A stretch of DNA of 64,000 nt, taken from Armatimonadota bacterium. Lineage in GTDB: Bacteria > Armatimonadota > SYMT01 > JACQGL01. This document shows, piece by piece, positions 7,477 through 54,649 of this stretch. A program made the position numbers and the translations under genes. The stretch covers positions 712 through 64,711 of the forward strand of contig JACQGL010000205.1 of the NCBI GenBank assembly GCA_016199525.1. The letters are read 5' to 3'. The notes under the pieces are model-generated. The model ran no database searches and was not told the DNA's origin. It was given only the letters and a program-made list of their open reading frames with translations. Within the stretch, counting starts at the first letter, position 1. Each line of letters starts with the position of its first letter.

Positions 7477-7566
7477 GCGATGAGCAGAAGGCCACCTGGC
7501 GAGGCCCGGTGGCCTGGAGGTGGCTCGTTGGGGATTGGGCCTGGTACGCGCCGAAAACGGGGGCTG

Positions 7567-8385: not shown

Positions 8386-8424
8386 ATCCGAAGGGCAAGG
8401 CACGCTGATTGGCAGAGGGAACTG

Positions 8425-8444
8425 GCCCCGAAAGCTTTCGGGGC
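8425..8444. repeat. Palindromic repeat copy GCCCCGAAAGCTTTCGGGGC (convergent intergenic, possibly a bidirectional terminator-like hairpin)
   Basis: Perfect 20-bp palindrome lying between the stops of convergent genes. Confidence 0.9.
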
Positions 8445-8450
8445 TGGTCT

Positions 8451-18813: not shown

Positions 18814-18948
18814 TCCGGCGGCGTGGCTGCTGTTCAGCCTCAAGATCCTACTTCCGCTGGAACGCACGGGGTCTGGAAGTAGGAGCAAGAGCACGGTGGG
18901 TAAGGCGGCGGTGGCCTTCCGGAAGCCCCGACTCTTCGGGCCGAGGAG

Positions 18949-18972
18949 CCCTCCCGAACGCTTTCGGGAGGG
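18949..18972. repeat. Palindrome-family variant CCCTCCCGAACGCTTTCGGGAGGG (intergenic hairpin)
   Basis: 10-bp arms with a 4-nt centre, and the same CCCGAA..TTCGGG core. Confidence 0.7.
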
Positions 18973-19026
18973 CATTCGGGACTGTGCTGGTTCATTTAGA
19001 CGACTGCTCAAGGGCTTTTCTTCTCT

Positions 19027-20670: not shown

Positions 20671-20676
20671 TCCGCT

Positions 20677-23600
20677 ATGGGCCTCACGCGGCTATCGGTA
20701 GAACGCCCGCTCGTCCTCTGCATGGCGGTGGCGGCACTTATCTTGCTGGGGCTGCGCGCGCGCGCCCAGCTCCCCGCGGAGATGGATCCTCGCGTGGATT
20801 TCCCCGTCGTCCACGTCGTCACCGTCTACCCGGGAGCAGGGCCGGAGGAGGTCGAAGAGCAGGTCACACGTCCGCTGGAGGAGGCGGTGGCGGGCGTCAA
20901 CGGCGTGACGAGTGTCAGCTCCAGCTCCCAGGAAAACATTTCCTTCGTGAGCGTCGACTTTCAGCTCGGCACCGATCTGAACGCCGCCACCGCCGACCTG
21001 CGCGCCCGCATCGAGGGACTGCGCAGCGATTTGCCCCCCAACGTGGAAGCACCGACGATCACCAAGCTGGATATCAACGCGCAGCCGATCCTGGTGCTCG
21101 GTGTCACCGGCGCGCGCCCGCTCCAGGATCTGCGCGCCATCGTGGACGACGATATCAAGCCGCAGCTGGCGCGCGTCCCTGGGGTGGCGGCGGCTCAGGT
21201 GGTTGGCGGCCGGCGGCGCGAGGTGCGCGTAGCAATCGATCCCGCGAAACTCCAGCTCTACGGCCTCTCGATTCTGGACGTGCTGGAGCCGCTGCGGGCT
21301 GCTTCGCAGAGCGCCCCCGCGGGGAGCATCGTGCAGGGACAGCGAGATCTGTCCGTGCGCGTCCAGGGGGAGTTTCAATCCCTGAACGACATTCGCGCCG
21401 CGCCCATCCCCCTACCCCAGCCGAGCCGTCCAGACCTGTTGCCGCTGTCGCGCAGCCCAGCCGCGCCCAGCACCCCTCTCCGGCTCGGAGATCTGGCCAC
21501 CGTGTCGGATACCGTGGAGAACCAGGAGCAGATCACCCGCGTGGCGCGGCGGGAGAGTATCGGCATCGTCATCACCCGCCTGTCGGATGCGAACACGGTG
21601 AGCACCGCGGCGGGCATCAAGCGCCAGATCGAGCGCCTGCACGCCACTCTTCCCCCGGACGTGCGGCTGGCCGTGCTCCAGGATAACTCCCAGCGGGTGG
21701 AAGACGCCCTGGAAGACATTTACTTCGCGCTCATCTTCGGCTCACTGCTGGCGGTGCTGGTCGTCTTTACGTTCCTGCACAGCGTCAAGGACACGGTGAT
21801 CGTTGCCCTGGCGATCCCCACCAGCATTATCACCACCTTCCTGGTGATGTGGGCGGGCCGGTTCACGCTGAACCAGATGACTATGCTCGCCCTCTCCCTG
21901 TCGGTCGGCATCCTGGTGGATGACAGCATCCTGGTGCTGGACTGCATCCACCGTCACCGCCACCGGGGGAAGGAGCCGCACCAGGCGGCGCTGGACGGGC
22001 GCGCGGAGATCGGCCTGGCCGACGCCACCAACACCCTGGTGGATGTGGTGGTGTTCGTGCCCATCGCCTTTATGGGCGGGATGGTGGGGCAGTTCTTCCG
22101 CCAATTCGGGCTGACGGTCGCCACTGCCACCCTGATGTCGATGTATGTCTCCTTCAGCCTTACCCCGATGCTGGCCGCTCACTGGTTCCGCCCGGGGGAG
22201 GGGCTGGGATCGCCGCAGACCCGCTTCGCCCGCTGGTTCGATCGGCAGTACGGGGCCCTGGATCACGCTTACCGGGGTGTGCTGCGATGGGCGCTGGGAC
22301 GGCGACCGCTGGTAGTGGGCGGAGGGTTCGGGTCGCTCGCCATCGCTGTCCTGCTGGCCTGGCGAGTGGTGGGGTTCGACTTCGTGCCACCCGTAGATCA
22401 CGGCCAGGTAGCGGTGACCCTCCAGATGCCGCCGGAAGCATCCTTGGCCGCCACGGACCGGATGATGCGTCAGATCGAGGACGTGGCCGTCCAGGTGCCG
22501 GAGGTGGCCGAAGAGCGGATGTTCGCCAGCCTGGGAGAGATTATCGGCGGGTTCGGCTCACTGCCCGAGCGAGGGCCGCAGTTCGCCCAGCTAACGCTTA
22601 CTCTGCGCGACAAGGACAGCCTCCTGGACCGGGTGCTGCACCCGTTCGGTGGCTCCGGCAAGCGGCAGCGCAGCGATGAGGAGGTAGCCGCGGACCTCCG
22701 CCGGCGGCTAGCGCAGATGGGAGCGGCGGGGAGGATCATCGTCTCGCCCGTGCGCGCGTTCACCGGCTCCCTGGCGCCCCTGCAGCTCGGTCTCTATGGT
22801 ACGGATCTAAACGAGCTGGAACGGGCTACCGGGCGCGTGCTCGACGTATTTGCCAGCGTACCGGGGTTGCGGAACCCCGACAGTTCCCTGCGCCGCGGTA
22901 AGCCCGAAGTGCAGCTGCGCGTGGAGCGCGAGCGGGCGGCGGACCAGTTCGTCACGCCCGCGGAGGTGGCAGGCGCCCTGCGGGTAGCCTTAGAAGGTGA
23001 TACCAGCGTGCGTTACCGCGAGGGCGGGCACAGCTATGCCGTCCGCGTGCAGCTCGCCCGCGCGGGGCGCAGCCGGCCGGAAGCGCTCCAGGACCTGGTC
23101 GTCGCGCGGCGGGGAGACCACCCGGTGTTCGTGGGCGACGTGACCACCCTCGGGTTCGGCACGGGGCCGACGAAGATTCTACGGCGGGACCGCGTGCGAC
23201 GGGTGGTGATCACCGCCGAGCTGGCGCCCGGGGTATCCCTTGGGGCAGCCCAGGAAGCGGTGGAACGCCGCCTGCGGCAGGTGGATCTGGGCAACGTGCG
23301 GCGCGTCTGGGAGGGCGAGTACGACGATATGATCGAGAGCACGGGCCACATGATCAGCGTCCTCCTGCTCTCCATCGCCCTTTCCTACATATTGATGGCC
23401 GCTCTGTTTAACTCCCTGGTCCACCCGCTGACGATCGTGCTCAGCGTGCCCATGGCCCTGGTGGGGGCGATCCTGGGGCTGATCTTCACGGGCACCACGC
23501 TAAACATCGTGTCGATGATCGGCATCATTATGCTGGTGGGCCTGGTGGCCAAGAACGCCATCCTGCTGGTGGACTATACGAACACGTTGCGCGCCGGGGG

Positions 23601-23865
23601 TCTCGCGCGCGAGGCCGCGCTCCAGGAAGCAGCGCCCGTGCGCCTCCGCCCCATCCTGATGACCACCCTCTCCACCCTGTTCGGGATGCTGCCTATCGCG
23701 TTACGGATCGGGCGCGCCGCGGAGATGCGCGCCCCCATGGCGATCGCCGTGATCGGCGGCCTGGCGCTCTCCACGCTGCTCACGCTGGTAGTGATCCCCG
23801 TTGTCTATACCTACTTCGATGATCTCTCCCGGTGGCTGAAGAAGCTGTGGGGCAGGCAGGGGTAG
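20677..23865 (+). CDS. RND efflux permease (HAE1/AcrB-like)
   Basis: 1062 aa with the canonical RND TM and periplasmic loop pattern. Confidence 0.9.
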   Translation: MGLTRLSVERPLVLCMAVAALILLGLRARAQLPAEMDPRVDFPVVHVVTVYPGAGPEEVEEQVTRPLEEAVAGVNGVTSVSSSSQENISFVSVDFQLGTDLNAATADLRARIEGLRSDLPPNVEAPTITKLDINAQPILVLGVTGARPLQDLRAIVDDDIKPQLARVPGVAAAQVVGGRRREVRVAIDPAKLQLYGLSILDVLEPLRAASQSAPAGSIVQGQRDLSVRVQGEFQSLNDIRAAPIPLPQPSRPDLLPLSRSPAAPSTPLRLGDLATVSDTVENQEQITRVARRESIGIVITRLSDANTVSTAAGIKRQIERLHATLPPDVRLAVLQDNSQRVEDALEDIYFALIFGSLLAVLVVFTFLHSVKDTVIVALAIPTSIITTFLVMWAGRFTLNQMTMLALSLSVGILVDDSILVLDCIHRHRHRGKEPHQAALDGRAEIGLADATNTLVDVVVFVPIAFMGGMVGQFFRQFGLTVATATLMSMYVSFSLTPMLAAHWFRPGEGLGSPQTRFARWFDRQYGALDHAYRGVLRWALGRRPLVVGGGFGSLAIAVLLAWRVVGFDFVPPVDHGQVAVTLQMPPEASLAATDRMMRQIEDVAVQVPEVAEERMFASLGEIIGGFGSLPERGPQFAQLTLTLRDKDSLLDRVLHPFGGSGKRQRSDEEVAADLRRRLAQMGAAGRIIVSPVRAFTGSLAPLQLGLYGTDLNELERATGRVLDVFASVPGLRNPDSSLRRGKPEVQLRVERERAADQFVTPAEVAGALRVALEGDTSVRYREGGHSYAVRVQLARAGRSRPEALQDLVVARRGDHPVFVGDVTTLGFGTGPTKILRRDRVRRVVITAELAPGVSLGAAQEAVERRLRQVDLGNVRRVWEGEYDDMIESTGHMISVLLLSIALSYILMAALFNSLVHPLTIVLSVPMALVGAILGLIFTGTTLNIVSMIGIIMLVGLVAKNAILLVDYTNTLRAGGLAREAALQEAAPVRLRPILMTTLSTLFGMLPIALRIGRAAEMRAPMAIAVIGGLALSTLLTLVVIPVVYTYFDDLSRWLKKLWGRQG

Positions 23866-35522: not shown

Positions 35523-36242
35523 CTAATCGGGGTTCTCCTCCAGCCAGCGCTGGAGGGCCGCGTTTTCCTCGGCCAGGACGTCCGCATTTAGCAGCCCCCG
35601 CTGCAGGCCTTCGAAAACAGCCCGGCTGCGGGGGCTGAACATGCTGCCCGGTTCCTCCTCGCGTTCCACACCCAGCCTGGTGTAGAGGCCGTGTAACCGG
35701 TTCTGGGCGCCGCGCCGGGAGAGATAGCGACGCCGGGCGATCCCCCGGTCCGTCAGGCCCAGGGCAATGTCGATCAACGCCTCGTACTCGGCGTCCGTTA
35801 GCGCGCTGGGAGATTGCAGCGCGCGAGCCTGCACGCCGCGAATCTCCCGGTCCAGCCAGCACTGTTCTTCCAGCAGAACCATTCGCACGGCCTGAACCAG
35901 CTTCTCATCCGGGCTACTCTTCAGCACGTAGCCATATACGGTCTCCGGCGGGACGATCTGCGCCAGCCGGCGCACATAGATCTCGTCTTTGAACTGCGAC
36001 CAGAACACGATGCGCGTTTCGGAACGTTCTGCCCACACGCGGCGCGCTATCTCGATGCCATTGAGGCCCGGGAGCTGGATATCCATGACCAGCAGCTGTG
36101 GCTGTTCCTGCCGCGCGTGAATGAGCGCCTGCGCGCCATCGCCCACCGCCGCCAGGGGCAGCGCCTGCGGGATCCGTTCCCGTAACAACCGCTCCAGGTG
36201 CTCACGTTGCGCCGTGTTGTCTTCAACAATCAGCGTTTTCAT
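35523..36242 (-). CDS. Response regulator, NarL/LuxR family (REC domain plus HTH)
   Basis: N-terminus MKTLIVEDN..VMDIQLPGLNGIE with a C-terminal LuxR-type HTH. It lies directly downstream of a HisKA_3 kinase. Confidence 0.8.
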   Translation of the reverse strand: MKTLIVEDNTAQREHLERLLRERIPQALPLAAVGDGAQALIHARQEQPQLLVMDIQLPGLNGIEIARRVWAERSETRIVFWSQFKDEIYVRRLAQIVPPETVYGYVLKSSPDEKLVQAVRMVLLEEQCWLDREIRGVQARALQSPSALTDAEYEALIDIALGLTDRGIARRRYLSRRGAQNRLHGLYTRLGVEREEEPGSMFSPRSRAVFEGLQRGLLNADVLAEENAALQRWLEENPD

Positions 36243-36252
36243 CAGTCAGGTG

Positions 36253-38448
36253 TCAGTTATCAACGCTGTCCGCGGGTGTCTCGCGTAGCGGCAGGCAAAC
36301 TTCCACCCGCGTGCCGCCCGTTTCCCGGGCGCTCCAGCGGACACGAGCGCCGATCAGGTCGGCGCGGTAGCGAATGTTGGCCATCCCGAAAGCTTTCGGG
36401 ACTCCCGCCGCCTGCTCCAGATCCAGGCCGCAGCCATCGTCCCAGATCACCAGGATCAGCGCGCCATCCGCGTGCTGCACCTCCAGACCGGCGTGCCGGG
36501 CGCCGCTGTGCTGAAACAGGTTGTGGATCGCTTCCTGGCAAATGCGGTACAGGGCCAGGCGCTGGTCCGCCGTGAGTGTGGGTTCTTCGCCCACACGGCG
36601 CACGGTAACCGCCAGGGGCGGTGCGCAGCGCGCCGCGCCCGTGCGGAGGGCGCTCTCCAGCGCATCCCCCAGACCCAGCATATCCAGAACGGAAGGCCGG
36701 AGCGCTTCCATTACCTCGCGGACGCTGTTCATCGCGCCCCGCAACTCTGCCTCCAGATGCTCTAGCTCGGACGCGATATCACCGGGACAATGCTTGAGCC
36801 GTTCCGCCTGGGCGGCGATCTGGCGCAGCTCGGGGAGCACCTGGTCATGGAGGTCTGCCGCCAGTCGCCGTCGTTCCTCTTCCGTGCCGGCGAGCACCCC
36901 GGCGGTTCGTGCCGCCAGCTCGGCCCGTTGCCGCTCCAGGAGAGCGGCGCTGAGACGGGCGTTCTCCAGCGCTACCGCCGCCTGCACTGCCGCCGCGACC
37001 AGCAGCTGGCGCTCTTCGGTGGTGTAGGGCAAGCCGCTCTCCCGGGGACCAATCTGCAGGGTGCCCCACACCTCCTGACCGCGGCTCACAGGGATCGCCA
37101 GCTCTGCCTGCTTCTCTGGCGCGCCGTCCGGAAACACAAAGCGCACCAACGTCGGATGCAGCGCCTGCCGAACGCCTTGCTCCAGGGCGCGCAGCACTCC
37201 CTTGGCATCCGTTTGCCCGCCCAGATTCTGCGCCAGCCGGATCAATGTCTGGCGTGTCATGTCAACATCGCGGAAGAACCGACGATCCAGGTCGCGTAAC
37301 ACTTCCTGACGCTTGCCAAGCAGCAGTGCGACAATGAACATCCAGACCAGGTAGGGAACCATCTCTGCCGGGCGGCCGCGAGCGTGGGTCACGGAGATCT
37401 GCCCCAGGCGCCAGACGAGAAGGAACCCGGGGAGCAGAAAGAGCGTGCCCAGCGTCCAGCGTGCCAGCAGGTACTGGAGCGTCCGGCGGGCGACCACCCG
37501 GACTTCCAGCGCCCGCAGCCGGAACACGAGGTGGGCAACAGCAGCCCCAAACAGAGCCGCCGGCAACAGGCTGACCGGGGCGAACTGGTCGGGAACGGCC
37601 CACATCTGCTGCGAGATCCCTACCAGAACGGCGGCCAGTATTGCACCCGCAGCTACCGTGAGAGCGCGGATGATCGGGCGGCTGGCTTCGTCGGCACGTC
37701 GCCAGCCAGCGAGCACGATCGCCAGGCCGTAGATCGCATAACCAATGCCGATTACGTCAAACAGACCTGCCGCCGCCCTGGTTCTGCCTTCGCGCACCAG
37801 GCCGGCGCCCAGCAGGCCAAACAGGAATAGCGGCAGGTAAACGGCAACGGCCATTCGCCAGGGACATTGTGGTTTCTGCCGGGGGGCGGCGGGGAAGATG
37901 GAAAAGAAGTGGGCGGCGAGCGCCAGCGCCACCAGGCGGGGCGCGCGGGGGAACGCGAACACGGGCGCCGATATCAGCACTAATCCCAGAAGCACGGCGC
38001 GGCCATCCCGGGGTTGCTGCCAGAACAGCGCCAGCGCTACCGCTACCAGGCCTCCCTGGAGGAGCGCCAGAGCCCACCAGGCCAGGTGCACCGGCCACGC
38101 GGGTGCGGCGGGCTGAACTGCTAACCGCAGCACCTTTCCCTGGCGGATGATCTCCGCCCAGCCGGCGCGCGGCACGCCACTGCTCCACTGGACCCACTGC
38201 CCTATCCGGGACGGGGCGCCCGCCACCGTGAGCGTCTCGCCGTTTACCCACCGGTCGCCAGTCAGCACGCCGGCGCGACTTAGCGGGCTGCCCGGCTGCA
38301 CGTAAAGCCGCCGCTCCGGCCCCAGCACCAGCGCGCCAGGCGCTGCGCGCGCGCCGCCCACGAGCGGCCGAGCCATCGCACCGAGGAGAGCGAGGCTACC
38401 TGCAAACAGGAGCAGATAGGTGTACCAGGGCCGGGGCATATCTTTCAT
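36253..38448 (-). CDS. Sensor histidine kinase (HisKA_3 / HATPase_c) with a large multi-TM N-terminal sensor domain. The start is probably MKDMPRPW; the ORF is open to 38685.
   Basis: H-box ADLHDQVLPELRQ, an ATPase domain, and ~10 predicted TM helices. It contains an in-frame palindrome copy (GVPKAFGMANIR). Confidence 0.8.
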   Translation of the reverse strand: MKDMPRPWYTYLLLFAGSLALLGAMARPLVGGARAAPGALVLGPERRLYVQPGSPLSRAGVLTGDRWVNGETLTVAGAPSRIGQWVQWSSGVPRAGWAEIIRQGKVLRLAVQPAAPAWPVHLAWWALALLQGGLVAVALALFWQQPRDGRAVLLGLVLISAPVFAFPRAPRLVALALAAHFFSIFPAAPRQKPQCPWRMAVAVYLPLFLFGLLGAGLVREGRTRAAAGLFDVIGIGYAIYGLAIVLAGWRRADEASRPIIRALTVAAGAILAAVLVGISQQMWAVPDQFAPVSLLPAALFGAAVAHLVFRLRALEVRVVARRTLQYLLARWTLGTLFLLPGFLLVWRLGQISVTHARGRPAEMVPYLVWMFIVALLLGKRQEVLRDLDRRFFRDVDMTRQTLIRLAQNLGGQTDAKGVLRALEQGVRQALHPTLVRFVFPDGAPEKQAELAIPVSRGQEVWGTLQIGPRESGLPYTTEERQLLVAAAVQAAVALENARLSAALLERQRAELAARTAGVLAGTEEERRRLAADLHDQVLPELRQIAAQAERLKHCPGDIASELEHLEAELRGAMNSVREVMEALRPSVLDMLGLGDALESALRTGAARCAPPLAVTVRRVGEEPTLTADQRLALYRICQEAIHNLFQHSGARHAGLEVQHADGALILVIWDDGCGLDLEQAAGVPKAFGMANIRYRADLIGARVRWSARETGGTRVEVCLPLRETPADSVDN
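36383..36400. repeat. Palindromic repeat copy TCCCGAAAGCTTTCGGGA (inside the kinase CDS)
   Basis: Perfect 18-bp palindrome, identical to the copy at 8192. Confidence 0.9.
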
Positions 38449-38743
38449 ATAACCGTTCTGTTGCGCCGATGCAATCGGATATCTCCGCCGTTCCCACGGT
38501 GCAAAAGCACAGCCGCCCTGACGCTCTTGCCGCATCAATCGTGCGCTGTTCCCGCTGGGGCGCGGCGGCAGAACCAGGTATGCTGAAGCTGGAGGTGGGG
38601 GAAGAGGAACTACGGGGCGCGTGCCGCCCCCAGCGCTCCCCGCGGCCCCGCCGGAACCCTCTTCCCGTCCTGAGCCGGGGAGCATAGCGGAGAGATAACG
38701 GGAGATACAGTAGCACAGTAGAGACGTCGCAGGGAGGACAAGA

Positions 38744-39403
38744 ATGCAAACGTGGAAGAAGATCGGCGTTTTTGGCGGGCTGGCAGCGGCCCTTGTGGTG
38801 GCCGGCGCAGGCGTTTCGCGCGCTGCAGGGCCAGAGGGGCCCTGGGGCCGGCGTATACGGCTGATTCAGGCGCTGCGGGCGCTGGGGGTGACCCCCGACC
38901 AGGGGCGCGCGCTGAAAGCCGCGGCGGTGCACCTGGCGGTCGAGCGCCGGGCGCTGAACCTGGAAGATCTGTCGGCGCCCGAGCGCAAGGAGCGCCTGTT
39001 CCAGCTGCGCCGCGATTTCTTCGCCCGCGTGGATGCCACCCTTACCGCCGACCAGAAGGCGAAGTTGAAGGCCTGGTTCGAGCAGGGACGCGCGGCGCGC
39101 GCGGAGCAGCTCCGACAGAGAGCTGCCGCATTCGCCACGCAGCTGCAACTTACGGCGGAGCAGCGCGAACGAGCGAAAGACATTATCCAGCAGGCGAAGG
39201 CCAGGATAGACCAGGTGGCAGGCGATGCAGCGGTGGATACGCCTACGCGGCTGGCTACGGCGATCGGGGTGCTGGAAGAGATACCCGGTCAGATCTACCG
39301 CACCCTCACACCTGAGCAGAAAGAGAAGGCAAAGGGCCTGCTGGAGGCGGCTATCCGGTCCCGTCTACCCGTAGAGAACCTCCTCAACCAGGACGCGCCC
39401 TAG
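38744..39403 (+). CDS. Periplasmic LTXXQ-repeat protein (CpxP/Spy/ZraP family-like)
   Basis: Signal peptide, and three LTxxQ motifs (LTADQKAKLKAW, LTAEQRERAKDI, LTPEQKEKAKGL). It is divergent from the kinase-regulator pair. Confidence 0.7.
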   Translation: MQTWKKIGVFGGLAAALVVAGAGVSRAAGPEGPWGRRIRLIQALRALGVTPDQGRALKAAAVHLAVERRALNLEDLSAPERKERLFQLRRDFFARVDATLTADQKAKLKAWFEQGRAARAEQLRQRAAAFATQLQLTAEQRERAKDIIQQAKARIDQVAGDAAVDTPTRLATAIGVLEEIPGQIYRTLTPEQKEKAKGLLEAAIRSRLPVENLLNQDAP

Positions 39404-39416
39404 CTCCATAAACAAC

Positions 39417-39445
39417 GCAGCAATGCGTCTGTTGCTTGCTCTTTT
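39417..39445 (+). terminator. Putative rho-independent terminator after the LTXXQ gene
   Basis: Imperfect hairpin GCAGCAA..TTGCTTGC followed by TCTTTT. Confidence 0.4.
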
Positions 39446-39522
39446 GCCCCTATCTGGACGGCCGGGTTCAGGAGTAGGAGGTAAGAAGCAAGACAGCAGA
39501 AACGCGGCTGTAACGCCGAGCC

Positions 39523-39557
39523 AGAACCAGTTCCGGAGCTGCTCCGGAACTGGTTCT
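39523..39557. repeat. 35-bp perfect inverted repeat AGAACCAGTTCCGGAGC-T-GCTCCGGAACTGGTTCT
   Basis: 17-bp arms around one central nucleotide. Operator-like or cruciform-capable. Confidence 0.9.
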
Positions 39558-40042
39558 ACGTTTCACCTGAGGGCAACCTCACCCCCCGGGCCAGCTCGGG
39601 AGGCATGGCGGGCAGAAGGTCCGAAAGTTGGATCAAACTCCAGGAATCCGATCCCGTAAGTGCGCTGCTCCGGCGCCCGACAGCACCCCTGGCGCTCACT
39701 GCCAGGCCCTATCGACGGTACCTTGTAGGCATACTGCTCCTCCGGGCGACAACCCTACCCAGGCCGATGTTCTCCGCACGATAGAGGATGCGCCGACCCT
39801 GGCGCGGTTCGCCGGGCAGGCCCGTGACGTCGCGTATGGGAAGAGCTAGTGGACCATGAAACCAGTAGAGAGGCAATAAACCGTTTCCGTTCGACTACCA
39901 CACGCCCGCGCAGGTTATGTAAATCTTCTCATCGCTGCGGTTTACGATGGTAAACCCTGTAGGAACCACACTGTTGCCCAGTGCGAATAGAGACCCGCAA
40001 CCAACGCTCTGATGACCAGATAAGCACTGAGTCTGACTGACC

Positions 40043-40072
40043 AGAGCAGCAACGAAACCTTGCTGCTCTTTT
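40043..40072 (+). terminator. Rho-independent terminator (AGAGCAGCAA-cgaaacc-TTGCTGCTCT followed by TTTT)
   Basis: Perfect 10-bp stem, 7-nt loop, and a U-tract on the plus strand only. Confidence 0.7.
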
Positions 40073-40399
40073 CGTGAATACCTTCTATATATCAATAGGG
40101 GAATAACTGTGTCGCCGTACGATTCCCCGTGCTAGGCACGCACTGGCTTACAGCGCCAGGGAGATAAGATCAGCGCTCTTGCAGAGAGAGCTGTGGTAAA
40201 GCGGGATGTCGCTCCTCCCGCTATGCCCGTCCCGCAGTCCCGTTGCACCCGCGTCTGAAAGCAGCTTTAATGGGCTGGATTGAGCCACGAGCAGGAAAAG
40301 CGAAGATTTAGCACAGGCTTCAAGCAGGCTGTACGCTCCCTTTACCGGCCCTTTACCGGCGCGCGGTATGTTGTTGTTGGGGGAAAGGGGGCGAGGGAG

Positions 40400-40483
40400 A
40401 TGTGCGTGCTGTTAGCATTCATCAGTTTTGTAGCCCTGATGTTCATTTCGGACATGCTGGAGCGCCGTCAGCGCCACCGCTGA
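40400..40483 (+). CDS. Possible 27-aa hydrophobic mini-protein MCVLLAFISFVALMFISDMLERRQRHR
   Basis: Strong SD (GGGGGAAAGGGGGCGAGGGAG) before the ATG. A single TM helix with a basic C-terminus. It overlaps the 3' end of the convergent kinase gene. Confidence 0.3.
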   Translation: MCVLLAFISFVALMFISDMLERRQRHR

Positions 40484-41945
40484 CCACTGGCTTTCGTACT
40501 TCGTCCGGTGCCGCGTGCGTGTCACCGTTCTCGAGGGTAATGGCGCCTGTCGGCAATATGAAGGAGAACCGGCTGCCGACGCCCACCGTACTCTCTACGA
40601 ATACCTGGCCGCCGTATGCCTCGATAATCTCCTTGACGATGGACAGCCCGAGACCCGTGCCCGCCAGGTGCCGCGTGTGCGGATCGGAGCTGCGGTAGAA
40701 GCGCTCAAAGATACGCGCCAGATCGGCCGGTGGTATGCCGCTGCCGTGGTCCTCGACAAACACCCTGATCCATTCGTCTTCCCGTTCTGCACCCAATACC
40801 ACGGATTCCCCGACGGGGCTGTATTTGACGGCGTTGTCCAGTAAGTTGGCCAGCACCTGCTCCAGTTGCTGACAGTTCGCGTTAACCACGGCGGGCGGCC
40901 CCGGGGCAACTTCAAAACGCACCTGCTTCTCCGCGGCCACCGGCTCCATTAGCCGGGCGACGTCGTGCAGCACTTCGTTCACCTCAACCGGCGCGCGACT
41001 GTAACGCTCCACTCCGGTATCCAGGCGGGCGATGCTGAGGATGTCGTCCAGCAGAGCGCTGAGGTGCCGGCTCTGCCGTTCCAGGGTTTGCAGGAACTCT
41101 GTGGCGACTGCCGGGTCGTGAATTCCTCCCACGAGCAGCGCTTCGCAGGTGGCCCGCAGCGCCGTCACCGGGGTCCGGAGCTGGTGGCTCACATCCGCTG
41201 CGAAGACCTCACAGGCGTCCCTCTCCTTCTTGAGCCGCTGCACCATCTCCCGCAGGCGGCGGGTCATCAGGTTGAGGCTTTCGGCAAGCCGACCCACCTC
41301 GTCGGACGATGTCACCGTCAGGTGCTGCTCCAGGTCGCCGTCCGCCACCCGTCGCGCCATCTTCTCCATCCGCGCGACAGGTCGCGACAGGCTGGTCGCA
41401 ATCCGGAAGCTGAGCCAGCCCGCCAGCAGCATAGTGACGATCATGGTATCGATGGCCATCCGGCGGATCTTGCTCAGGGCGCGAGCGACGGTGAGGGAAG
41501 GAACCGTGAGCTGGACCTCGCGCACCGGGCTGCCGGCCACGCGCACCGGCTCCACGCTGTGCACGGATTCTACTTTCCGCTCTTCCTCGTGGCATACGGC
41601 ACAGGCCCTCTCCTGCCGGCCGGCGCGATGCACCCCGCTGCTCCCATTGCTCTGGCTATCGGCCAGCGCAACCCCGCCCGCGCCCAGGAGGGTCACCTGC
41701 GCGCCGACCTGCTTGCCCAGCGCATCACAGAGAGACTTGAGGTCGGCGGGAGGACCCGCGCGGTCGAGACTCTGGGACAGCAGCCGCGCCACCAGCCGGG
41801 TATGTTCCGCCGTCGCCTCACGGATGGATTCCAGGTAGTACTGCTTCACGGCGGAGAGGACGCGCACACCGAGTACCGTTACCGCCAGGAAGATGAGCAG
41901 CGTATAGGTAAGGGCAAGGCGGTAGCGGAGGCTGAGAGAGCGCAT
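40443..41945 (-). CDS. Sensor histidine kinase (HisKA + HATPase_c) with a CXXCH heme-c motif in the periplasmic sensor domain
   Basis: Two TM segments flank a periplasmic loop of ~140 aa that contains ACAVCHEEER. Also has a HAMP-like region, the H-box EVFAADVSHQLRTP, and G-boxes. Confidence 0.8.
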   Translation of the reverse strand: MRSLSLRYRLALTYTLLIFLAVTVLGVRVLSAVKQYYLESIREATAEHTRLVARLLSQSLDRAGPPADLKSLCDALGKQVGAQVTLLGAGGVALADSQSNGSSGVHRAGRQERACAVCHEEERKVESVHSVEPVRVAGSPVREVQLTVPSLTVARALSKIRRMAIDTMIVTMLLAGWLSFRIATSLSRPVARMEKMARRVADGDLEQHLTVTSSDEVGRLAESLNLMTRRLREMVQRLKKERDACEVFAADVSHQLRTPVTALRATCEALLVGGIHDPAVATEFLQTLERQSRHLSALLDDILSIARLDTGVERYSRAPVEVNEVLHDVARLMEPVAAEKQVRFEVAPGPPAVVNANCQQLEQVLANLLDNAVKYSPVGESVVLGAEREDEWIRVFVEDHGSGIPPADLARIFERFYRSSDPHTRHLAGTGLGLSIVKEIIEAYGGQVFVESTVGVGSRFSFILPTGAITLENGDTHAAPDEVRKPVVSGGADGAPACPK

Positions 41946-41951
41946 CTTGGT

Positions 41952-42632
41952 TCACCCCTCGAATCGGTAGCCCACGCCGCGGAGGGTGACGATGCGCACC
42001 GGGGCCTCCGGGTTCTTCTCGATCTTCTCCCGAAGGGAGTGAATGTGAACATCCAGGGTGCGCGTCTCCACGGCAAACGGCTCCCCCCACACCGTTTCGT
42101 AAAGGAACTCGCGGGACAACACCCGGCCTTTATGGTTCATGAGGGTTTTCAGTAACTCGAACTCCTTCAGGGTGAGATCCACACGACGGCCCTGCAGGAA
42201 GACCTTGCGGGAGTCGCCGTGCAACTCCAGGTCGCCCGACACGAGGGCCGATTCGGCGACCTCCAGGTCTTGCATCCGGCGGAGGACGGCGCGCACGCGG
42301 GCAATCAGTTCACGAATGCTGAACGGCTTGGTCACGTAGTCGTCGGCTCCCACCTCTAGGCCCACCACCCGATCCACTTCTGCCGTGCGCGCGGTGACCA
42401 TGATGATCGCCGCCGCTGATTCCTTTCGCAGCGACCGGCACACGGAAAGCCCATCTATATCCGGCAAGATCAGGTCGAGCAGCACGACATCCGGGCGCCA
42501 GGCACGCCCTTCCGCAATGGCTGTCTGTCCATCCGAGGCGATACGCGTGAGAAAGCCTTCCTTCTCCAGGGCGTAGCACAGCGAACGCGCAATATCTCTC
42601 TCATCCTCAACTACCAGGACTTTCGTGGTCAT
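41952..42632 (-). CDS. Response regulator, OmpR/PhoB family (the ORF is open upstream to 42923)
   Basis: N-terminus MTTKVLVVEDERDIA..LLDLILPDIDG and a C-terminal winged helix (LRGVGYRF). GGGAGGGGAGGG RBS. Confidence 0.85.
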   Translation of the reverse strand: MTTKVLVVEDERDIARSLCYALEKEGFLTRIASDGQTAIAEGRAWRPDVVLLDLILPDIDGLSVCRSLRKESAAAIIMVTARTAEVDRVVGLEVGADDYVTKPFSIRELIARVRAVLRRMQDLEVAESALVSGDLELHGDSRKVFLQGRRVDLTLKEFELLKTLMNHKGRVLSREFLYETVWGEPFAVETRTLDVHIHSLREKIEKNPEAPVRIVTLRGVGYRFEG

Positions 42633-42738
42633 GGCCCTCCCCTCCCGCGCTCTCCCACCAGCCGGTATCCCCCGGGTGCGCAGGGCGGAACGGGACTCCC
42701 AAAGGTGGTTTGGGGGTGCGCCGCCGGCTCCCCCGACC

Positions 42739-45219
42739 TCAATTCGGCTGCGTTGCATGACAGCGCAAACAATCCTCCAAGGCGAAGGCTCGCGTCCCGT
42801 TATGGCAGGCGCCGCATTGCTGCCCGCCCCCCATCTTCGCCATAGTGCAGGCGCCGCTCTCCGGGCGGCGCATCGGGAACAGACGCGAGTGGCACCCGGC
42901 GCAGCCATTCTCAGTGTACCCACGGTGCCGCGCGTGGCTGAATGTCACGGCGCCCGGGCTGCCCTCACCGGTGGGGAACCGGTAATCCGCCGGGGCAGCC
43001 TGCGCGTTCGACGAAGCCACCGGGCGAACCGTCGGTTTCCTGGGGGTGGCGTGGCAGAGGCCACAATCTGAAGCCACGGTAAACGCCTCCTTGCCGTTGT
43101 GGCAGAATCCGCACTGACGGCCTTCCTTCATGGAGGCCATACGCAGGTCGGGCGAAGAGACCATGCCAAAGAGTGCCGGGTGGCAGGTGGAACAAGTGCC
43201 ACCGCGGGAAAGATGAGCGCGATGGCTGAACGTTACCGGCCCGGGTGCGGCCTGGACGCGTCGCACACGATCCTCCGGCACGCGGTTCACATGCGCGACG
43301 GCGCCGCCCGGCGATGGGGAACTCCCCCGGTGACACAGCGCGCAGTCGGTGGCCACGGTGAACGCATCTCGCCCGTTATGGCACTTGCCGCACCCCTCGC
43401 CCTGGCGCATAGCCGGCATCTTCAGCGGACCGTTTTCCGGCGCTACCATCCCGAAGAGCGCCGGATGGCACGCGGTGCATTCGTCGTTCACGTGCGCCAG
43501 ATGCTGCCGGTGGCTGAAGGGCACCGGGCCCAGGCTCTGCTTCTGTGATGTGAACTGGAAATCCGCGGGCGGCGCAATCTGCCGGGCGGTTACGGAGGAA
43601 ACCGTGATGCCGCTACCGCTGGAGTGGCAGAAGCCACACCCATCCCGGACCTCAAACGCGTCCACACCATTGTGACAGGACTGGCACCGGTCCATCGTGT
43701 CGATGGTGTGCCCGGCGCCAGCACTGGCGGGCCGCGACATGAGAAACAATTCTGCGTGGCACGTTTCGCAGGCGAGATGCTGGCCGTTGACGTGCGTCGC
43801 GTGCCGGAACACCACCGTTCCTGGACTTACGGCGCCTTGAGGAAAGCGCTGCTCCGCAGGCACGCGCAGGGGAACCGTGGCCATGCGCGCCGCGACCTCC
43901 TGGAGGCGCGGGAAGCTGGGGCCCAACCGGCCGCTAGGGGACGCGGCTGCCTCGTTCGCCCGCACGAAAATCGCCGCAAGGGCGAAGAACATCGCCAGGC
44001 CGCTCAGGAAAGCGATACCGGCGGGCGTCGCAATGGGCGCTTCTCCTGGGTGGCCTGCCGGCCGGTTCCGTAGAAGTGGGGCGTAGCTCACGCCCTCCTC
44101 CGACCCTTCCTGGGGGGAAGGAAAGACCGGCAGGTAGCGCGCCGCCATCCCGAACGCCAGGAATCCGCAGGCGATGATGGCGATGGTGATTGCCATCTCC
44201 ATCCAGGTGGGGAAGTAAGCCTGACCGGCGCTCCGCTGAACCCCGGTAAAGCTGACGTTCAGCCGATTCAGCACAAATCCGCACAGCGCCAGGAGCGCGG
44301 CCAGGAACAGTCCGGTGCGGTCGCCGCGCACGCGTGGTGTCAGATAGAACGCTATGGGCAGCACACTGCCCAGGGCGACCTCCAGCAGAAACATCCGACT
44401 CTCCAGGGAACCTTCCAGCACCAGCCCCGCCTTTCCCCGCGCCAGCAGATCGGCCAGCCGGATCGCCAAGCCGAGGAGGAGCACCCCGGCGCTCGCCTTT
44501 GCCAGTCCCTGAAGGATGTCCCGGTGTACGCCAGTTCCGAAAGCCCGGTGGCTCAAATAAGACTCAAAGATAACCATCGACAGCCCAGCGCCCACGGCGG
44601 ACACAAAGAAAAACAGCGGCAGCAGCGGGGAATACCATAGCCCGTGCAGCTTGTTCGGCACGATGAGGAACAGGGTTCCGAGGGATGACTGGTGCAAGGT
44701 GGAGAGCAAGACGCCGGTGATGACCAGCGGCACGATCGCCGCGTGAATCCAGCGGAGGGGTGTCTGGAGGCCGAGCCGCTCAAGTAACGCGGGGCTGAAC
44801 TCCAGGGCGAGCACACCGGTATAGAACATCACGCACATCGCCACCTCGAAGAGCGGCGAGTGGAGGTTGCCCATAATCAGGGGGTGCCAGATGCGGTACG
44901 GCAAGCCGAGGTCGCATAGCAGCGACACGATGACCAGCAGATACCCCAGGAAGGCGGTCAGTAGGGACGCCCGCAGGATGGCGCGGTACTTTTCCAGGCG
45001 GAACACGTAAACCATTGCGGCGAGGGTGAACCCTCCCGCGCTGAGACCGACGCCGCAGAGCACGTCGAAGCCGATCCAGAGCCCCCAGGGATAGGCATCG
45101 CTGAGGGCCGTCGTGGCGCCCAGCCCGTAAACAAACCGCGCCACGAGGGAGTAGATTCCTGCGCCGAGGATGATAATAAGCATCGCGCGCCAGAACGTGA
45201 TGGAAGGACGGGGTCTCAT
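42739..45219 (-). CDS. Fusion protein: N-terminal NrfD/PsrC-like polytopic membrane (quinone-interacting) domain plus C-terminal dodecaheme cytochrome c (4 x c7-type triheme repeats)
   Basis: ~400 aa with ~10 TM helices, then 12 CXXCH motifs with a recurring F.H..H(x6-9)C..CH pattern (for example VTFSHRAHLSRGGTCSTCH). ATGA overlap with the upstream ferredoxin gene. Confidence 0.8.
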   Translation of the reverse strand: MRPRPSITFWRAMLIIILGAGIYSLVARFVYGLGATTALSDAYPWGLWIGFDVLCGVGLSAGGFTLAAMVYVFRLEKYRAILRASLLTAFLGYLLVIVSLLCDLGLPYRIWHPLIMGNLHSPLFEVAMCVMFYTGVLALEFSPALLERLGLQTPLRWIHAAIVPLVITGVLLSTLHQSSLGTLFLIVPNKLHGLWYSPLLPLFFFVSAVGAGLSMVIFESYLSHRAFGTGVHRDILQGLAKASAGVLLLGLAIRLADLLARGKAGLVLEGSLESRMFLLEVALGSVLPIAFYLTPRVRGDRTGLFLAALLALCGFVLNRLNVSFTGVQRSAGQAYFPTWMEMAITIAIIACGFLAFGMAARYLPVFPSPQEGSEEGVSYAPLLRNRPAGHPGEAPIATPAGIAFLSGLAMFFALAAIFVRANEAAASPSGRLGPSFPRLQEVAARMATVPLRVPAEQRFPQGAVSPGTVVFRHATHVNGQHLACETCHAELFLMSRPASAGAGHTIDTMDRCQSCHNGVDAFEVRDGCGFCHSSGSGITVSSVTARQIAPPADFQFTSQKQSLGPVPFSHRQHLAHVNDECTACHPALFGMVAPENGPLKMPAMRQGEGCGKCHNGRDAFTVATDCALCHRGSSPSPGGAVAHVNRVPEDRVRRVQAAPGPVTFSHRAHLSRGGTCSTCHPALFGMVSSPDLRMASMKEGRQCGFCHNGKEAFTVASDCGLCHATPRKPTVRPVASSNAQAAPADYRFPTGEGSPGAVTFSHARHRGYTENGCAGCHSRLFPMRRPESGACTMAKMGGGQQCGACHNGTRAFALEDCLRCHATQPN

Positions 45220-46010
45220 TGGGGCTCGCCTCCTTCGCCTGATTCCGATTCGGCGGCGACTTCCGCGTCGGCCACTGCTTCAACAGACGTCAGGGCTGCA
45301 AGCTGTATGCGCCGATTGATGACCCACGATAGGCCGAACAGGACGGCCGCTCCAAAGCTCACAATGAAGGGAGTCTTCGAGAGCACACCCCAGGTGAGTT
45401 CCGGATAGGCTTCATCGCGGACCCCCGTCTTGAACCCGAGTTCTTCAAACGGTACGGGCGACAGATAGAGCACCGAGGTGCCGCCCGCCTCGCGCAGCCC
45501 GTAAATGTGAGGCACATACTGCTCCGGGTTCTCTCGGATCCGCCGCTCTGCTTCTCTGATCAGGGCGTCCCGATCTCCGAACAGCGTCGCCCCGGTGGGG
45601 CAGACCGCCGTGCACGCGGGTTCTTCGCCCTGCTTCAGACGCTTTTCGTAACAGAGGACGCACTTCTGGGTGATGGGCAGAGCTCTATCCCACTGGTATT
45701 TGGGAATGTCAAACGGGCAGGCCATCACGCAGTAACGACAGCCAATGCAACGGCTGGCGTCGTAGGTTATCGCGCCGGTTTCTGTTTTGCGCAGCGCTCC
45801 CACGGGGCAGACCGAGGCACAGGTTGGCTCCAGGCAGTGCATGCACATGCGCCGGATGAAGGTGTTGTGGCGATAGTCCACGTAGGTCCAGGTGTCCGCC
45901 TCCAGCTGCGATGCTTTTCCGCGGGGCAGATTATTGATCTGTTTGCAGGCCGCGGCGCACGCGCCGCAGCCGATGCACTTCGTCAGGTCGTTCAGAACCC
46001 CGGCTCGCAT
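45216..46010 (-). CDS. 4Fe-4S ferredoxin-type iron-sulfur subunit (HybA/NrfC/PsrB/HmcB-like) with a C-terminal TM helix
   Basis: Four Cys clusters (CIGCGACAAAC..CP, CMHCLEPTCASVCP, CIGCRYCVMACP, CVLCYEKR..CTAVCP). GAGAGGGAG RBS before the ATG at 46010. Confidence 0.85.
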   Translation of the reverse strand: MRAGVLNDLTKCIGCGACAAACKQINNLPRGKASQLEADTWTYVDYRHNTFIRRMCMHCLEPTCASVCPVGALRKTETGAITYDASRCIGCRYCVMACPFDIPKYQWDRALPITQKCVLCYEKRLKQGEEPACTAVCPTGATLFGDRDALIREAERRIRENPEQYVPHIYGLREAGGTSVLYLSPVPFEELGFKTGVRDEAYPELTWGVLSKTPFIVSFGAAVLFGLSWVINRRIQLAALTSVEAVADAEVAAESESGEGGEPQ

Positions 46011-46206: not shown

Positions 46207-46404
46207 TTATGGACCCTTCGAATCGGACAGGCCGCTCATCTGGCGGACCGCTGCATGTGGCGCCCCTCCCGCCGACCCGTCGAGCGTCCACGCTTCTTCT
46301 AGATCCGATCGGACCCCAGCCGCTTTTCGGATTCTTAGCATTTCGCTTACCCAGTCAAGCAGAATGAATGTGACCATGGTGAGCAGGACAAGCATTGCTA
46401 CCAT
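46207..46404 (-). CDS. Small single-TM membrane protein (hypothetical), first gene of the cytochrome operon
   Basis: AAGGAGGT RBS, hydrophobic N-terminus MVAMLVLLTMVTFILLDWV, and an AT-rich promoter-like region upstream. Confidence 0.45.
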   Translation of the reverse strand: MVAMLVLLTMVTFILLDWVSEMLRIRKAAGVRSDLEEAWTLDGSAGGAPHAAVRQMSGLSDSKGP

Positions 46405-46905
46405 CTCGTCCACCTCCTTCCGCGCGCGTCCTGTATCGAGAGGTTACCTGTACACCAGATTTATTGTAGGTTCAGGATGTAAAATCAATTTAAAATCCGA
46501 CATAAGTTCATGTTAATTGTCCGGGCGGCGGGCTCCTGATCGCCGCGACGGCGAGTTCGGGTGAGGGCCGAGAGAGCACCGGCCCACCAACAACACGATC
46601 GGCAGCAGCAGGGGGCACAGCAGGACTCTCAAACGACGGCATCTACAGCGACTGGCCAGCAGGCAGACCTACGGAGAGCAGATCGGGGAGGACGTCCGGC
46701 GCCCGGGTCCGGTAATGGAACCGCGACCGCAAGGGAGCGGCAGGCAAGGGCACCTGGATTGCGGGTGGCGGAGGGGAAACAGCGAACGCAGCGCGAGTAC
46801 CGTCGATTCGGCCCCCCGGCCGTTGCATTACAGAGGGGCTTTGAACGGGGCGTTCGGCGTGGGGTCGTATCCCGAACGCTCCCGCGCTCGAATGGGGAAC
46901 GCCCT

Positions 46906-54288: not shown

Positions 54289-54638
54289 GGGGGCGATGGG
54301 TATCGACAAAGGCGGATAGCGGCGGCAGTTGCGAGCCGAGGCGCCGCTGGCCTCGTAAAAAGCGGCAAAAAACAAACGCCAACACTGGCACGTACGCTTA
54401 CGCTGCCTAATTAGTTAGGGAGCGCGCTTCTCCAGGGCCGGGCCGGGAGCCCGAAGAGAGGCGACGACAATCCTGGCCGCCCGCGTGGGTTTCACCCGCG
54501 AGCCCACGTGCGGTAATCGCGGGCTGGCGCGTGGCCGGTTTGCCGATGGAACGGCGCGCGCGAGACTTAAACATCGGCTACGCTCGTAGGCGCTACCGCA
54601 CGCACCCTTTGGACCCGGGTTCAATTCCCGGCGCCTCC
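54289..54638 (+). ncRNA. ssrA: tmRNA (ssrA), with tag-peptide ORF GCC..TAA encoding ANTGTYAYAA
   Basis: 5' end GGGGGCGATGGGTATCGAC pairs with 3' end CGCCTCC-A. tRNA-like 3' domain GGACCCGGGTTCAATTCCCGG. Internal CCTCGTAAAAAGCGGCAAAAAACAAAC GCCAAC... closely parallels E. coli tmRNA. Confidence 0.85.
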
Positions 54639-54649
54639 ACTTTTCCGCT

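Follow-up and report, generated by a model that had tools for sequence, protein, structure and literature searches.

A 64,000-nucleotide stretch of an Armatimonadota genome (assembly GCA_016199525.1, contig JACQGL010000205.1, positions 712 to 64,711 of the forward strand; hereafter the window, in whose numbering coordinates are given) encodes a two-component system whose sensor histidine kinase carries a putative heme-c attachment site, CAVCH, in an extracytoplasmic Cache domain. One family of periplasmic c-heme sensor domains is known, DUF3365/Tll0287, to which Geobacter chemoreceptors belong. The heme-motif sensor lineage described here is, as judged from profile and fold comparisons, separate from the known heme-Cache sensors, and a second origin of heme-c Cache sensing is probable. 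Our best reading of the locus, which we consider moderately probable, is that a heme-c Cache sensor kinase and its PhoB/RegX3-like response regulator activate two promoters, P1 and P2, and would thus form a module, complete in itself, that regulates a quinone-linked dodecaheme complex.

The kinase carries a single CXXCH motif outside the membrane

The genes of the system all lie on the minus strand and follow one another in the order of transcription as ORF1 (open reading frame 1), an iron-sulfur (Fe-S) protein, an NrfD-12-heme fusion, a 106-bp gap, the OmpR/PhoB-type regulator, and the kinase (Table 1). Pfam assigns HAMP (residues 182-233), HisKA (248-311; 1.1e-14), and HATPase_c (359-466; 3.5e-29) domains to the kinase, with His254 inside the H-box SHQLRTP. 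Hydropathy places its transmembrane (TM) helices at residues ~10-32 (TM1) and ~164-186 (TM2), and the 131-residue loop between them (33-163) is predicted to face the outside of the membrane because the N-terminus is basic (MRSLSLRYR) and the HAMP domain follows directly after TM2. TolC-like outer-membrane factors and resistance-nodulation-division (RND) pumps are encoded in the window and indicate a diderm cell with a periplasm, and the 12 CXXCH motifs of the neighboring NrfD-fusion gene indicate that the host makes c-type cytochromes. CAVCH is the sole CXXCH of the whole kinase, whose composition predicts 0.0025 such motifs per protein by chance and 0.0006 in the loop.

The regulator has RegX3 and MtrA as its closest solved relatives, and its stop codon is separated from the kinase ATG by six nucleotides. 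With receiver and winged-helix domains in the one protein, and HisKA and HATPase_c domains with an H-box in the other, the two form an OmpR/PhoB-type two-component pair. Orthology to PhoR-PhoB, SenX3-RegX3, or WalKR was rejected, the NCBIfam scores lying below the curated equivalog cut-offs (score/cut-off: WalK, 278/725; PnpS, 239/400; PhoB, 227/296; YycF, 241/340; MtrA, 228/300).

An initial annotation, made from the letters of the DNA, had placed a single CAVCH in a periplasmic loop between two TM segments of the kinase. Hydropathy, the HAMP domain, and the basic N-terminus bear this out, with the motif lying between the helices and outside the membrane, although the loop comprises ~131 rather than ~140 residues. 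The same annotation was right that both genes share the strand of the NrfD-dodecaheme and Fe-S genes and come directly after them; the gap is, however, 106 bp and not 107 bp long, and the gene order assumed within the pair has to be reversed, the regulator preceding the kinase.

The motif is invariant in an Armatimonadota kinase family

Alignment of 42 motif-bearing members, whose sensor domains are 18-33% identical to the query save for one ortholog at 58% (65% identical over kinase residues 1-240), revealed that Cys115, Cys118, and His119 are invariant in all 42, and Glu121 is present in 37. The motif is thus retained in relatives, and the loss in orthologs that would have spoken against a heme sensor was not seen. 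Three members read CGSVCH, that is, CX3CH in place of CXXCH; CX2CH and CX3CH are both established heme-c motifs. These three (P0015, P0021, and P0023, the last from locus L006; related loci are cited by L number) also have Cys rather than His at position 48 and are devoid of Cys73, and His/Cys ligation would fit this subgroup.

In a search with the full-length kinase, the best 24 matches all carry the motif, while matches 25-120 do not. An exhaustive HMMER (phmmer) search with the sensor alone found 177 relatives, the best of which have CXXCH at the same position, and the remainder of which are mostly PF16736-type PhoR/PnpS-like kinases of ~590 residues without CXXCH. Long-form heme-motif members, of ~590 residues as well, retain a cytoplasmic PAS domain. 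An identical kinase is annotated from an Armatimonadetes metagenome-assembled genome, and every heme-motif relative with a source name is from Armatimonadota.

The sensor is a rebuilt sCache_like domain

An AlphaFold2 model of the sensor domain, built on a 40-sequence alignment (predicted local distance difference test score 86.7, predicted template modeling score 0.78), has four strands and three helices, namely, a long one at the N-terminus, a second one, and one at the C-terminus. A Foldseek search of this model against the PDB gave no match at E ≤ 0.001; the best-ranked structures (E 2e-3 to 3e-2) are extracytoplasmic Cache/PDC sensors, among them those of B. subtilis PhoR (3CWF), WalK/YycG, CitA, DctB, and PctB/D, and the first 50 do not include GSU0582, GSU0935, or Tll0287. 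PF11845, the sCache_heme family, matched none of 19 heme-motif sensor domains at E ≤ 10, and the full kinase gave no match to it at E ≤ 0.01. No 3B42, 3B47, or 5B82 chain was found at E ≤ 10 when the family profile was run against all PDB sequences, a search in which the motif segment weakly matched cytochrome c heme sites (c555, SoxA, c7-like). PF16736 (sCache_like), on the other hand, matches 8 of the 19 sensors (best E 2e-4), the query itself being unmatched, and hhalign aligns the heme-motif profile with that of the non-heme relatives over all 131 columns (99.7% probability, E 1.4e-25). By these profile results, the sensor domain is a derived branch of the PhoR/PnpS-type sCache_like family and stands outside the sCache_heme family. 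The initial annotation had called the motif a hallmark of Geobacter-type heme sensors, which holds as a likeness in function; membership in the Geobacter/Tll0287 family (PF11845/DUF3365) was rejected, PF11845 matching 0/19 and the PDB profile search returning no heme-Cache structure.

Column-by-column comparison of 19 motif-bearing with 64 motif-less sequences shows how thoroughly the pocket differs. Position 118 is Cys in 100% of the motif-bearing and Arg in 91% of the motif-less sequences; position 119 is His in 100% of the former and mostly Tyr or Phe in the latter; and Glu occupies position 121 in 89% versus 6%. At position 48, the motif-bearing sequences have His (74%) or Cys (16%), in contrast to Gln/Glu (73%) and about 2% His (0-1/64) in their relatives, and position 73 is Cys in 74% versus 16% (10/64). 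Tyr129, found in 83% of the non-heme relatives, occurs in 0% of the heme-motif members, and Asn106, His107, Arg110, and Glu112 of the parent family are lost. The parent signature N-H...R-P-E...R-x-S-x-T...Y...R is gone, and C-x-x-C-H-x-E together with His48 is found instead. The stretch leading up to the motif has ~8 residues fewer than its counterpart in non-heme relatives, and the motif aligns to the Arg-bearing strand after β2.

In the full set of 42, position 48 is His in 37 members and Cys in 3, the Cys cases being exactly the CX3CH subgroup. Since His or Cys at this position tracks the motif, and both are established heme axial ligands, we propose residue 48 as the candidate distal ligand. 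It lies on helix α1, which continues from TM1, so that ligation would be mechanically coupled to the membrane helices. Such a conserved sixth ligand would favor redox sensing or ligand displacement.

The system is linked to a multiheme operon in its closest clade

The operon upstream of the regulator begins with ORF1, whose N-terminal pattern MVAxLxLLTxV..L.D is kept in loci L001, L013, L015, and L016 (two copies in the last). Small membrane ORFs of this kind (35-65 residues) precede every Fe-S/NrfD-c7 cassette examined and probably encode a subunit or leader peptide that has escaped annotation. For the Fe-S gene, the ATG at position 46010 is the most likely start; its product has neither a twin-arginine translocation (Tat) nor a secretory (Sec) signal and aligns to HmcB from profile position 37 on. 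It is followed by a quinone-interacting NrfD/HmcC-like membrane protein fused to four c7 triheme domains, a dodecaheme complex that is widespread in Armatimonadota and Acidobacteriota.

The 106-bp gap between the fusion gene and the regulator holds no terminator, no significant structure (z = 0.57), and no TTyAC array. Because the gap lacks a terminator or significant fold, read-through from P1 into the regulator and kinase genes is plausible in this genome. The corresponding region of L001 contains a nearly perfect hairpin (-71 kcal/mol, z = -7.5), absent from the window, which may be a palindromic insertion or a terminator.

L001 encodes a kinase 69% identical to the query in the same cassette (small ORF, Fe-S, NrfD-c7, regulator, kinase) between unrelated flanks. 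In L014, the NrfD fusion is 61% identical, and an orthologous regulator lies directly 3' of the fusion gene with no kinase after it, the 735 bp following the regulator being free of ORFs; a paralogous, convergent pair of regulator and heme-motif kinase (CSPCH) is located 0.7 kb away. The L013 contig ends after the NrfD-fusion gene. Among the other family loci, all of which have the regulator immediately before the kinase, neighbors include a multiheme cytochrome cluster (L003), HypA with a molybdopterin oxidoreductase (L002), and, by sequence inspection only, what seems to be the C-terminal part of a hydrogenase-maturation protease (L007). In two family loci, the regulator is directly preceded by radical S-adenosylmethionine (SAM) genes, one with a SPASM domain, and in another a URO-D family gene lies upstream; a link of these to heme or cofactor metabolism is possible. 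A scan of genome contigs for further loci gave an unrelated HAMP match only, and a scan of metagenome contigs for further close cassettes returned the L001 contig again and nothing more. The link between the kinase system and the NrfD-c7 module is real but specific to the closest clade.

Phased operator arrays bracket the cassette

Arrays were defined as at least three sites with steps of 10-12 or 21-23 bp and compared with Markov shuffles and with other loci; steps of 21-23 bp were allowed because the second half-site is degenerate, and under the stricter rule of at least three sites with every step 10-12 bp no array is found for that reason. The 64 kb of the window hold only two arrays, P1 and P2, where 0.01 would be expected under the Markov model, and none occurs in ~100 kb of other heme-motif kinase loci (52-65% G+C).

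P1 lies upstream of the operon. The window, L001, and L013 share its AT-rich element, with TT[ACT]A[ACT] sites at 0, +22, and +33 and a degenerate site with a conserved AACTT at ~+11. The putative -10 hexamer has the counterparts CAAAAT in L001 and TATATT in L013, and no separate -35 is present. Downstream of the -10, an element TACA(G/T)GT(A/G)A is conserved in alignment with L001 and L013, in both of which it falls within an inverted repeat; a role as a second operator is possible. In L015 and L016, the arrays are longer and consist of TTTAAC or TTAAM sites spaced 10-11 bp, and L016 contains its Fe-S/NrfD-c7 cassette in tandem duplicate, each copy with its own small ORF and TTAAM array.

P2 is situated just past the kinase stop codon and points back to the kinase, in the same position and orientation in L001, where the stretch after the array, CGCGCGGTATGTT, is identical to that of the window. 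It precedes ORF2, a 27-residue membrane peptide whose L001 ortholog is MSVLLAILTFVLIAVISDRIERRHKQSHN; on inspection of the two sequences, six codons differ synonymously only, and the peptide comprises 27-29 residues across both loci. The ORF2 peptide resembles the N-terminus of ORF1. In the window and in L001, P1 and P2 bracket exactly the Fe-S/NrfD/regulator/kinase cassette.

Of the two places in which the initial annotation proposed to look for OmpR-type direct repeats, the region upstream of position 46404 holds them, and they are kept in orthologous loci, whereas the 106-bp gap holds none. Its suggestion that the pair regulates the multiheme module gains support from these operators and from the gene order kept in L001 and L014.

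Proposed mechanism and alternatives

In the mechanism that we favor, the kinase would present its Cache-fold domain to the periplasm with one covalently bound c-type heme, held by thioether bonds to Cys115 and Cys118, with His119 as the proximal and His48 as the likely distal ligand. Oxidation or reduction of the heme, or the binding of NO, CO, or O2 in place of the distal ligand, would shift helix α1 relative to TM2, whereupon the HAMP domain would toggle the enzyme between its kinase and phosphatase modes; redox sensing and gas sensing fit the sequence data alike. The regulator, presumably coupled translationally to the kinase, would bind the four TTyAC half-sites as two dimers. From P1 it would drive ORF1, the Fe-S protein, and the NrfD-12-heme protein, as well as its own gene and that of the kinase by read-through of the gap, amounting to positive autoregulation. 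From P2 it would drive the convergent 27-residue membrane peptide, with a transcript running antisense into the kinase gene and possibly exerting feedback.

Several points weigh against this mechanism. Attachment of heme to the sensor is deduced from sequence, and the AlphaFold2 model is of low confidence immediately ahead of the motif (residues 103-111) and of only moderate confidence within it. At position 48, two of the 42 heme-motif members lack both His and Cys. The N-terminal helix of a canonical PDC domain packs on the sheet face opposite the ligand pocket, so that His48 could act as a ligand only after a rearrangement or through a dimer swap of the kind seen in GSU0582/0935, whose distal ligand Pokkuluri et al. 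in 2008 reportedly found to come from swapped N-terminal helices. A hairpin of ~115 nt separates the NrfD gene from the regulator in L001, and co-transcription is thus not universal. Only two or three loci tie the system to an NrfD-c7 cassette; the cassettes of L015 and L016 (49-51% identity) have no adjacent two-component system, and several family members (L004-L006 and L009-L011) are without respiratory neighbors.

Of the alternatives, a non-heme role for CXXCH, either as a disulfide switch or as a Cys/His metal site (Zn, Cu) in thiol-redox or metal-stress sensing, could draw on the same deduced nature of the heme. It could also appeal to the third cysteine, Cys73, enriched in the heme-motif group (35/42 versus 10/64 in non-heme relatives), to the moderate scores of the whole kinase against heavy-metal sensor kinase models, which lie well under the cut-off, and to the AlphaFold2 model, in which no heme-shaped constraint is seen. 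Yet all 42 members keep a His directly after the second Cys, no spacing other than CX2CH or CX3CH occurs among them, and the covariation of His/Cys48 with the motif fits axial ligation; moreover, the motif segment picks out, if weakly, cytochrome c heme sites in the PDB, and the neighboring genes encode cytochromes rather than metal-efflux or Dsb proteins. We therefore regard a non-heme site as improbable. Far less credible still is an ordinary PhoR/PnpS/WalK-like kinase that senses the signal of its non-heme relatives and in which CXXCH is a neutral, lineage-specific substitution: every conserved residue of the parent pocket is replaced, with C-x-x-C-H-x-E and His48 conserved in its stead, no phosphate-regulon genes are adjacent, and the NCBIfam scores all fall far under the curated cut-offs, even though the best core matches are WalK, PnpS, and PhoR for the kinase and YycF, PhoB, and RegX3 for the regulator, and the sensor is homologous to sCache_like domains.

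The sensor may also be a true heme sensor whose proximity to the NrfD operon is incidental, with targets elsewhere and another OmpR-family regulator acting on the TTyAC arrays. Consistent with this, family members at 30-43% identity occur in heterogeneous contexts, and no array precedes the regulator in the 106-bp gap; L015 and L016 have phased TTTAAC arrays and no adjacent two-component system, and so a regulator encoded elsewhere could bind such arrays. We nevertheless think it unlikely, if less so than a non-heme site, as the four-gene order is kept in L001 despite unrelated flanks, the orthologous regulator of L014 stays with the NrfD fusion even without its kinase, and P1 and P2 flank precisely this cassette both in the window and in L001, with one array lying at the 3' end of the kinase.

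We would place slightly short of an even chance on a more detailed joint proposal, namely, a second and convergent origin of a heme-c Cache sensor, in which Armatimonadota converted a PhoR/PnpS-type sCache_like pocket in place. The conversion would have proceeded by Arg to Cys, Tyr/Phe to His, and Gln/Glu48 to His/Cys exchanges with no inserted cytochrome fragment, leaving the distal ligand on a TM1-continuous helix. The same proposal would have the quinone-linked dodecaheme complex under a redox- or gas-controlled module composed of sensor, regulator, two pho-box-like promoters, and two small membrane peptides, of which the one antisense to the kinase could give MgrB-like or antisense feedback.

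Other features of the window

The window further encodes two RND efflux systems with TolC-like outer-membrane factors, a squalene-hopene cyclase, and a transfer-messenger RNA (tmRNA). A second two-component pair consists of an 810-residue kinase with a large multi-TM N-terminus and GAF, HisKA_3, and HATPase domains, and of a 239-residue receiver protein whose C-terminal domain has no Pfam match. The gene for a secreted LTXXQ/CpxP-Spy-like protein lies ~1 kb from the kinase end; L001 has no counterpart, and the protein is probably unrelated. Rfam gave no match in or near the kinase and operon, and a chance-level match only in the ORF-poor 1 kb downstream (39404-40318).

Table 1. Positions and strands of the features discussed; rows that begin with an L number refer to that locus, all others to the window
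Feature	Positions	Strand	Remarks
P1 array	46479-46516	-	upstream of operon; four 11-bp-phased half-sites TTAAC, TTATG, TTTAA, TTTAC
Putative P1 -10, TACAAT	46463-46468	-	10 nt past TTTAC (9 nt if TTTACA); sequence pattern only
TACA(G/T)GT(A/G)A element	46440-46455	-	downstream of P1 -10
ORF1	46207-46404	-	65-residue single-pass membrane protein (MVAMLVLLTMVTFILLDW...); first operon gene
Fe-S protein	45216-46010	-	HmcB/HybA-like subunit; four [4Fe-4S] motifs; C-terminal TM helix
NrfD-12-heme protein	42739-45219	-	NrfD/HmcC-like; four c7 triheme domains; exactly 12 CXXCH
Gap	42633-42738	-	106 bp, NrfD-heme gene to regulator
Response regulator	41952-42632	-	OmpR/PhoB family, 226 residues; Pfam Response_reg 4.7e-27, Trans_reg_C 2.2e-30
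Sensor histidine kinase	41945-40443	-	500 residues; TM1, Cache-like loop, TM2, HAMP, HisKA (H254), HATPase_c
Extracytoplasmic sensor domain	41457-41849	-	residues 33-163; Cache/PDC fold (AlphaFold2, Foldseek, hhalign)
His48 codon	41802-41804	-	candidate distal axial ligand; helix α1 following TM1
Cys73 codon	41727-41729	-	third Cys enriched in heme-motif group
CAVCH	41589-41603	-	residues 115-119; putative covalent heme-c site (C115, C118) with proximal ligand H119
ORF2	40400-40483	+	27-residue single-pass membrane peptide (MCVLLAFISFVALMFISDMLERRQRHR); overlaps kinase 3' end on opposite strand
Putative P2 -10, TATGTT	40367-40372	+	10 nt past last half-site
P2 array	40319-40356	+	convergent with kinase; four 11-bp-phased half-sites TTCAA, TGTAC, TTTAC, TTTAC
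RND efflux system with TolC-like factor	1716-7476	+
Squalene-hopene cyclase	11489-13507	+
RND efflux system with TolC-like factor	17377-23865	+
Second two-component pair	35523-38685	-
LTXXQ/CpxP-Spy-like protein	38744-39403	+
tmRNA gene	54289-54642	+	Rfam RF00023, 143 bits
L001 small ORF	5554-5706
L001 hairpin	9074-9186
L001 P2-ORF2 unit	11625-11458	-
L013 small ORF	6007-6162
L014 NrfD-fusion/regulator region	3109-6739
L015 small ORF	1134-1295
L016 tandem cassettes	455-8874
L016 small ORFs	4142-4249; 5117-5275
L003 radical-SAM/URO-D locus	6007-7194
L010 radical-SAM/URO-D locus	5376-6872
L006 radical-SAM/URO-D locus	5780-6748

Comparison with known systems

In the E. coli PhoB pho-box, direct half-sites follow one another at 11-bp intervals, and the proximal one stands in for the -35 element. 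P1 and P2 resemble it, and OmpR-family operators in general (E. coli PhoB, OmpR, PmrA), in their tandem direct half-sites with an 11-bp period and in the position of the proximal half-site 9-10 nt upstream of the -10, in the place of a -35; four half-sites would fit two regulator dimers. The half-site differs, being TTyAC as opposed to CTGTCAT for PhoB, and the operators described here are known as sequence patterns; the regulator itself scores below the PhoB, RegX3, and MtrA equivalog cut-offs.

The target complex is akin to Hmc, HybAB, and Qrc, with HmcC/HybB as the best NCBIfam matches of its membrane part and HmcB/HybA as those of its Fe-S protein, and with c7-type triheme domains supplying the periplasmic hemes. 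It departs from them in carrying its cytochrome and its NrfD subunit as one fusion protein, in the missing Tat signal of the Fe-S protein, and in the small membrane ORF that stands ahead of the operon; none of the scores reaches the equivalog cut-off. In Armatimonadota of hot-spring mats, membrane-embedded multiheme cytochromes of unknown function have been described in a setting of strong day-night redox swings (PMC11788075).

With the sCache_heme proteins (PF11845; GSU0582, GSU0935, the P. azotoformans HAMP protein, and Tll0287), the sensor has in common an extracytoplasmic Cache domain between two TM helices with one strictly conserved CXXCH, coupling to a HAMP domain or kinase, and an expected signal of redox state or diatomic gas. 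Where that family has a distal ligand, the N-terminal helical region contributes it, as is proposed here; in GSU0582/0935 it is supplied by swapped N-terminal helices (PMC3460858). A sCache_heme signaling protein that has been studied experimentally behaves as an NO sensor, and the DUF3365/Tll0287 family, presented in the same 2026 preprint as the first Cache domain with a covalent cofactor, is rare in Terrabacteria (PMC12889525). The lineage described here, in contrast, belongs to Armatimonadota (Terrabacteria) and has no detectable sequence relationship to that family. For sCache_heme, an inserted cytochrome fragment with a helix between β3 and β4 has been proposed as the source of CXXCH (PMC12889525), whereas here the motif replaces the Arg-bearing strand with a net deletion, strand numbering being compared by description only. 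The preprint makes no mention of Armatimonadota or PhoR, and no description of a CXXCH-bearing PhoR-type Cache domain was found in the literature searched.

It is the sCache_like sensors of PhoR, PnpS, and WalK (PF16736; 3CWF, 4YWZ) that the domain resembles in fold, in the arrangement TM-sensor-TM-HAMP-optional PAS-HisKA-HATPase, in its hhalign probability of 99.7%, and in its top Foldseek matches, and from which it differs in the loss of the pocket signature and of any match of the query to PF16736. If our reading is correct, a second lineage arose from another Cache family by another route, and heme-c sensing has evolved more than once on the Cache scaffold. The family would then offer a natural comparison of how axial ligation, with its His/His pair here and a His/Cys pair in the CX3CH subgroup, influences which signal is sensed, within an unusually complete circuit of sensor, regulator, conserved operators at two promoters, and a defined target, the NrfD-fused dodecaheme complex.

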